Shown here: piece by piece, positions 1,011-1,257 of the stretch
Numbering within the stretch: position 1 is the stretch's first letter
Layout of the letters: each line of letters opens with the position of its first letter
Origin: Escherichia coli
GTDB taxonomy: Bacteria; Pseudomonadota; Gammaproteobacteria; Enterobacterales; Enterobacteriaceae
NCBI RefSeq assembly: GCF_011045215.1
Contig: NZ_CP049202.1
Direction: 5' to 3' (one strand)
DNA: 64,000 bases
Made by a program: the position numbers and the translations under genes
The notes under the pieces: generated by a model
Told to the model about the DNA's origin: nothing
The model's database searches: none
Seen by the model: only the letters and a program-made list of their open reading frames with translations

Positions 1011-1257
1011 TACTGACTACAGCTTATATTATCAGGTGCAGTGAGTGGTCTGCTCACTGCAGTTTATATTCAGTTTCCTGCAGTGCTGCCTGTGGCTGAG
1101 CTGCCATCTGCCTATCCCTTACGTAAGTGATCCCGTAACCTGATGCTGAGGCATTGCTCCCTTCATAAAACATGGTTTACTCACTACAGCTTATCTACCT
1201 GCTCCAGCTTATGTTATGTCTGTTCTGCTGACCACTGCTTATATAAGGAAGTGCCGT
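1011..1257. repeat. Iteron-like direct repeats downstream of rep gene (about 5 copies of a CACTACAGCTTATAT-like core)
   Basis: Related 15-17 bp cores at 1011-1030, 1054-1070, 1180-1196, 1201-1217, 1241-1257. Confidence 0.6.

Follow-up and report, generated by a model that had tools for sequence, protein, structure and literature searches.

Counterparts of the locus analysed here in other replicons are the incC array of mini-F (replicon RepFIA, initiator RepE) and the incA array of P1 (initiator RepA). In both, initiator-binding iterons lie downstream of the rep gene, apart from the origin iterons, and both arrays exert negative copy-number control and incompatibility. For the FIB replicon itself, the reference map is Supplementary Fig. 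S2 of a 2025 study in Nucleic Acids Research (PMC11983097), in which the FIB replicons of F and pO157 are aligned and their iterons labelled: B to D'' upstream of rep; E, F, G, H, I and J downstream; and K inside the neighbouring gene. When carried alone on a P15A vector, the EFGHIJ block displaces (cures) the pO157 FIB replicon, whereas BCDD'D'' alone does not (PMC11983097). The authors of that study liken the FIB downstream block to mini-F ori2/incC, citing Uga et al. 1999 on handcuffing, and propose that Rep-mediated handcuffing of the upstream with the downstream iterons controls replication and incompatibility. For FIB, this handcuffing is worded as 'probably' and 'predicted' (PMC11983097). 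The FIB replicon of F is itself partly defective through a change in its RBS (PMC11983097).

We analysed a 64,000-nucleotide stretch of Escherichia coli plasmid DNA, referred to throughout as the window. It opens at the annotated GTG start codon of repA, as do many plasmid records. Two convergent genes flank the region of interest:

1-978, plus strand: repA, a 325-codon open reading frame from the annotated GTG, encoding a Rep_3-family initiator (Pfam Rep3_N, WH1 domain, E = 3.4e-11).
1257-1997, minus strand: int, encoding a tyrosine recombinase of 246 amino acids, convergent with repA (Pfam Phage_integrase, E = 5.4e-14); its relatives are annotated as tyrosine-type recombinase/integrase.

RepA is identical to its F plasmid counterpart at 324 of the 326 positions aligned, which comprise 325 residues and the stop. 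Mutation and N-terminal data place the true start of repA at a CTG 14 codons upstream of the annotated start (PMC11983097); the true 5' end of the gene and its RBS therefore lie outside the window. The activity of this FIB replicon would depend on which RBS allele it carries, AGGAGG or AGAAGG. The origin iterons B, C, D, D' and D'' are likewise outside, upstream of repA. Residue 97 of RepA in the annotated numbering (window 289-291) is a threonine, within the motif NVTGDK. The eight relatives that we compared carry isoleucine at this position, or proline in the case of pO104_H21, and the threonine substitution appears to be private to this plasmid.

The 278 bp that separate repA from int contain a family of short repeats, and a further candidate lies inside int. 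The ranks in the following list are those assigned by a weight matrix of origin iterons, described below:

978-998 (core 979-995), minus strand: iteron E, inverted, abutting the repA stop codon; matrix rank 3; label E in PMC11983097 Fig. S2.
1010-1030 (core 1013-1029), plus strand: iteron F; matrix rank 1-2; label F in PMC11983097 Fig. S2.
1030-1046, minus strand: degenerate inverted half-iteron CTCACTGCACCTGATAA, with 3 mismatches; forms a palindrome with G and is weaker or missing in some relatives.
1050-1070 (core 1053-1069), plus strand: iteron G, sharing 16/21 bases with F; matrix rank 680; label G in PMC11983097 Fig. S2.
1071-1176: spacer between G and H, in which no feature was recognised; its sequence varies among relatives, some of which lack part of it.
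1177-1197 (core 1180-1196), plus strand: iteron H; matrix rank 1-2; label H in PMC11983097 Fig. S2.
1195-1215 (core 1198-1214), plus strand: iteron I, whose 21-mer shares 3 nt with the end of H; matrix rank 4; label I in PMC11983097 Fig. S2.
1225-1245 (core 1228-1244), plus strand: iteron J, with CTG in place of the CAG of the F plasmid; matrix rank 119; label J in PMC11983097 Fig. S2.
1614-1634, plus strand: candidate iteron K, CTGCCTGACATAGCTTATATC, weak and within the int coding sequence; recovered by the repeat search as a copy at 1612-1631; label K in PMC11983097 Fig. S2.

A repeat search of the window returned a single direct-repeat family of five copies (1004-1032, 1044-1072, 1171-1199, 1189-1217 and 1219-1247), whose start-to-start distances are 40, 127, 18 and 30 bp. 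These 29-nt versions have a mutual identity of only 62-72%. In their 21-mer form, the five direct repeats occupy 1010-1030, 1050-1070, 1177-1197, 1195-1215 and 1225-1245. There are six copies in total: the sixth is inverted (978-998, minus strand) and lies against the repA stop codon (976-978), and the search recorded it through an inverted match of 23 nt that pairs 978-1000 with 1008-1030. Any two of the six 21-mers have between 12 and 18 of 21 bases in common. The first-pass annotation had described five direct repeats with variable spacing after the initiator gene. This description holds: the search finds five, and the core, allowing at most 2 mismatches, occurs nowhere else in the 64 kb. 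It had also placed the beginning of the array at 1011; here the five copies stand but the start does not, because the array begins at 978 with the inverted copy E, which had been missed. The last repeat was further said to overlap the recombinase reading frame. It does not: the J core runs to 1244 and the 21-mer to 1245, and the int stop codon lies beyond them, at 1257-1259. The last base of that codon is touched solely by a 30-nt extension of weak similarity (1228-1257), which is 77% identical to 1013-1042.

Tandem Repeats Finder reported nothing in 900-1700, and the block is therefore dispersed rather than tandem. The downstream block lacks a head-to-tail regularity of roughly two helical turns (21-22 bp): in contrast to the origin iterons, its repeats are unevenly spaced and out of helical phase. 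Because its spacing is irregular and lacks the 21-22 bp period, we regard the block as a control locus and not as an origin. The first-pass annotation had proposed that a lack of periodicity would argue against iterons. That test is invalid, since the published downstream array is irregular too and only the origin array has the 21-22 bp period.

The six sites of the window correspond to iterons E to J of the F/pO157 map in order, orientation, spacing and sequence. For the comparison with the F plasmid we used NC_002483, which carries the replicon in reverse orientation: 100/102 core bases are identical, and the offsets from the stop codon are equal. This comparison with reference RepFIB iterons, which the first-pass annotation had suggested, thus shows coincidence with E to J in both position and sequence. 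The RepFIB replicons of F, pO157 and P307 resemble the window in having repA, the repeats and a convergent int, with E inverted, F to J direct and K at the equivalent place in int. The differences from the F plasmid are small. Iteron G has CAG in the window and CTG in F, whereas iteron J has CTG in the window and CAG in F; six of the bases that separate J from the int stop in F are absent from the window; that stop is TAA rather than TGA; and there are a few SNPs in the spacers. In the plasmid record NZ_CP070067.1, all six core sequences and the J-int junction are the same as in the window.

The 17-nt core CTSACYRCWGYTTATRT, allowing at most 2 mismatches, has five matches in the 64 kb, all of them within 979-1244. 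The chance expectation is 0.42, and 0/100 shuffles gave five. Since the copies had themselves supplied this pattern, we made an independent test with a weight matrix whose only input was the set of five origin iterons of NZ_CP070067.1, contiguous repeats that precede repA and are spaced by 22, 22, 21 and 21 bp. Among 127,960 window positions, the top 4 scores of this matrix fell on 1177-1197 (H), 1010-1030 (F), 978-998 on the minus strand (E) and 1195-1215 (I). The origin iterons and the downstream iterons share a recognition motif; the origin region of the window's own plasmid lies outside the window. J and G scored lower, at ranks 119 and 680, with a training set that, at 5 sites, is very small. 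We attribute their low scores to this small set rather than to non-membership, and kept both as members because they align to the published G and J. Individual sites may nevertheless differ in affinity, as could J with its CTG in place of CAG.

The intergenic region was aligned from eleven loci. In E. coli p266917_2_01 (L011), repA is identical to that of the window at 777/978 nt (about 80%). The six cores are 89/102 identical (87%), compared with 87/176 (49%) for the other intergenic DNA (Fisher p = 1e-10); the G-H spacer alone shows about 49% identity. In two further loci (L007 and L008), 42 bases of the G-H spacer are deleted, seen as two gap blocks in the alignment, and every core is retained. 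The iterons stay beside repA in pO104_H21 (L009), from which int is absent, and in L012, where an IS3 element lies between the iterons and int. The Klebsiella plasmid pCRE14_2 (L010) and L011 agree with the window in architecture and core motif, with E, F, G and H at +1, +35, +75 and about +217 from the repA stop. They differ in carrying extra copies, among them full inverted partners at +88 and +271/+298; at these places the window has degenerate half-sites only (at 1030-1046 and after J). In addition, they favour the core CTCAC over CTGAC, and their spacers are unrelated to those of the window.

Two stretches of the array can fold in the repA transcript:

986-1022, plus strand: hairpin formed by the inverted pair E/F, with 15 pairs and the tail CTTATATTAT; -24 kcal/mol, z = -5.7; terminator-like.
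1037-1061, plus strand: hairpin formed by the half-site and G, with the tail GTTTATATTC; -17.5 kcal/mol, z = -3.4; terminator-like.

These folds raise the question of whether the two palindromes are primarily intrinsic terminators that part the convergent repA and int, their likeness to the repeats being incidental. Both hairpins are called terminator-like by a consensus scan, both form strong RNA folds, and they lie directly 3' of the repA stop; in our reading of the alignment, the altered stem positions in L010 still permit G-U pairs. Their tails, however, are interrupted T tracts rather than clean U-runs. The same motif, equally conserved, is borne by H, I and J, a region for which no RNA structure was found (z = +1.4), and at the origin it recurs five times in a single orientation, every 21-22 bp. 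Furthermore, E in L010 is closer to G than to its hairpin partner F. We consider a primarily terminator function unlikely, at roughly the level of a minority view. It is plausible that the E/F and half-site/G palindromes additionally terminate the repA transcript, but this would at most be an extra function of two of the six sites.

The same palindromes have the geometry of recombinase core sites, with arms at 978-1000 and 1008-1030 that are 7 nt apart and a second pair of arms at 1030-1045 and 1053-1068, also 7 nt apart. As the tyrosine recombinase gene is 260 bp away and the linkage of repA with int is common, the inverted pairs with their 7-nt centres could be core sites for that enzyme, for example in multimer resolution, and not (only) RepA sites. 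We judge this highly improbable: the arms consist of the iteron motif, which they have in common with the direct repeats of the origin; the repeats persist beside repA when int is missing (L009) or separated by an insertion sequence (L012); and the second palindrome has a degenerate left arm, which L006-L008 have lost. As a precedent for the combination of int and repeats we considered the crs/rsd system, by which virulence plasmids of Salmonella resolve multimers, and rejected it, since its resolution gene rsdB lies in the ccdAB operon and not beside RepFIB. Equally slim are the prospects of a combined reading, in which the E/F and half-site/G pairs would be multifunctional, serving as RepA sites, as terminators and possibly as a recombinase site; its recombinase part would be argued solely from geometry and gene adjacency. 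If true, such multifunctional palindromes would link the control of FIB copy number with the resolution of multimers. Finally, the identity of 62-72% over 29 nt, the irregular spacing and the blank Tandem Repeats Finder result might suggest a chance or low-complexity resemblance devoid of function. This is ruled out by the number of core matches relative to expectation and to the shuffles, by the placement of four sites at ranks 1-4 of an independent origin matrix, and by cores that are far more conserved than the spacers and identical to experimentally studied iterons.

We conclude that the repeats are very probably the downstream iteron block E-J of the IncFIB (RepFIB) replicon, exerting negative copy-number and incompatibility control via RepA. 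The first-pass annotation had read them as initiator-binding iterons of RepFIB with a role in copy number or incompatibility, and this reading is supported by the match to the published E-J iterons and by the displacement activity of EFGHIJ (PMC11983097). That activity was published for the near-identical pO157/F alleles (PMC11983097). Each unit of ~21 bp, with its core CTSACYRCWGYTTATRT, is a predicted site for RepA, the initiator encoded directly upstream. RepA on the downstream block would titrate the initiator and/or pair with RepA bound at the origin iterons (handcuffing), and such pairing could take place in cis or on a sister plasmid. Initiation would thereby be limited, the copy number set and FIB replicons made mutually incompatible. 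We infer that RepA binds to each copy in this particular plasmid and that it would act by handcuffing as opposed to pure titration.

Compared with mini-F incC and P1 incA, the FIB block has a different iteron sequence and an initiator of another lineage, and its copies are irregularly spaced (18-127 bp), with one of them inverted at the stop codon. The incC and incA arrays are more regular. A RepA-repressible promoter, 'EFp', was reportedly described at repeats E and F by Spiers et al. in 1993; a promoter scan at these two repeats found no sigma-70-like site.

Candidate iteron K ranks 10-11 with the origin matrix, which is within background. E. coli-type alleles keep all of its bases (21/21), although synonymous changes occur on either side of it, and 13/21 are kept in the Klebsiella allele L010, where the site is lost. 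Because its score is within background and it is lost in L010, we list K as a candidate of uncertain function. The int gene that contains it is short (246 aa), and the match to the catalytic domain covers residues 51-216, leaving scant space for an N-terminal core-binding domain. Upstream of int, at 2050-2170, there are three spaced GGATCC motifs (cccGGATCCttcc, gcgcGGATCCtttt and gcagGGATCCtgtc), and a promoter-like site is present on the minus strand at 2145-2117; these elements may be regulatory. An open reading frame of 141 amino acids on the plus strand (1143-1568), which runs across the iterons and antisense to int, was treated as spurious. In NZ_CP070067.1, the region upstream of the origin iterons contains a GATC-rich stretch (1748-1798) with an 11-bp periodicity, made up of 4.5 copies of GATCCATAAAA, as well as a DnaA-box-like sequence, TTATCCACA. 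Both are typical origin features and lie in the part of the replicon that is outside the window.

Several other features were observed elsewhere in the window. A gene on the minus strand (40385-43912) encodes a YadA-type trimeric autotransporter adhesin of 1175 aa and contains three near-identical 471-bp tandem repeats (41653-42894). About 25 kb away, and in inverted orientation, is a shorter YadA-like open reading frame of 531 aa (13859-15454, plus strand), in which no membrane-anchor domain match was found. Several inverted repeats of 87-99% join the two YadA regions. A chaperone-usher fimbrial cluster occupies 3703-12952 on the minus strand, with PapD-like chaperones encoded at 3703-4431 and 12212-12952 and an 802-aa open reading frame at 4388-6796; in relatives, this region is annotated as a PefC/AfrB-family usher. 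The closest plasmids come from E. coli of cattle and sheep and from E. fergusonii. At the Rfam gathering score, the plus strand at 52178-52264 matches the catalytic domain of a group II intron (63 bits), and the minus strand at 46478-46594 matches the ALIL frameshift pseudoknot (121 bits), which belongs to an IS3-family element. In window 1-2500, Rfam gave no match.

RepFIB is among the commonest plasmid replicons and also among the best known. A total of 3,354 plasmid records match the 501-bp segment 900-1400 of the window, most of them at 95-99% identity, and NZ_CP070067.1 is the sole record among them with an identity of at least 99% to this query. The first 4 kb of the window are matched in 3,182/5,426 complete E. 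coli genomes, that is, in over half. The array is an already described element; its recognition from the sequence was correct, and it adds no new biology. The E-J segment has been used in plasmid-curing cassettes (PMC11983097). In database annotation (PGAP and PLSDB tables), no feature is listed between repA and int. The value of the finding therefore lies in correct annotation, which would mark iterons E to J and take account of an annotated repA GTG that is probably 14 codons short. IncFIB is one of the commonest replicons on the resistance and virulence plasmids of Enterobacteriaceae, and these repeats are very probably its incompatibility and copy-control determinant.
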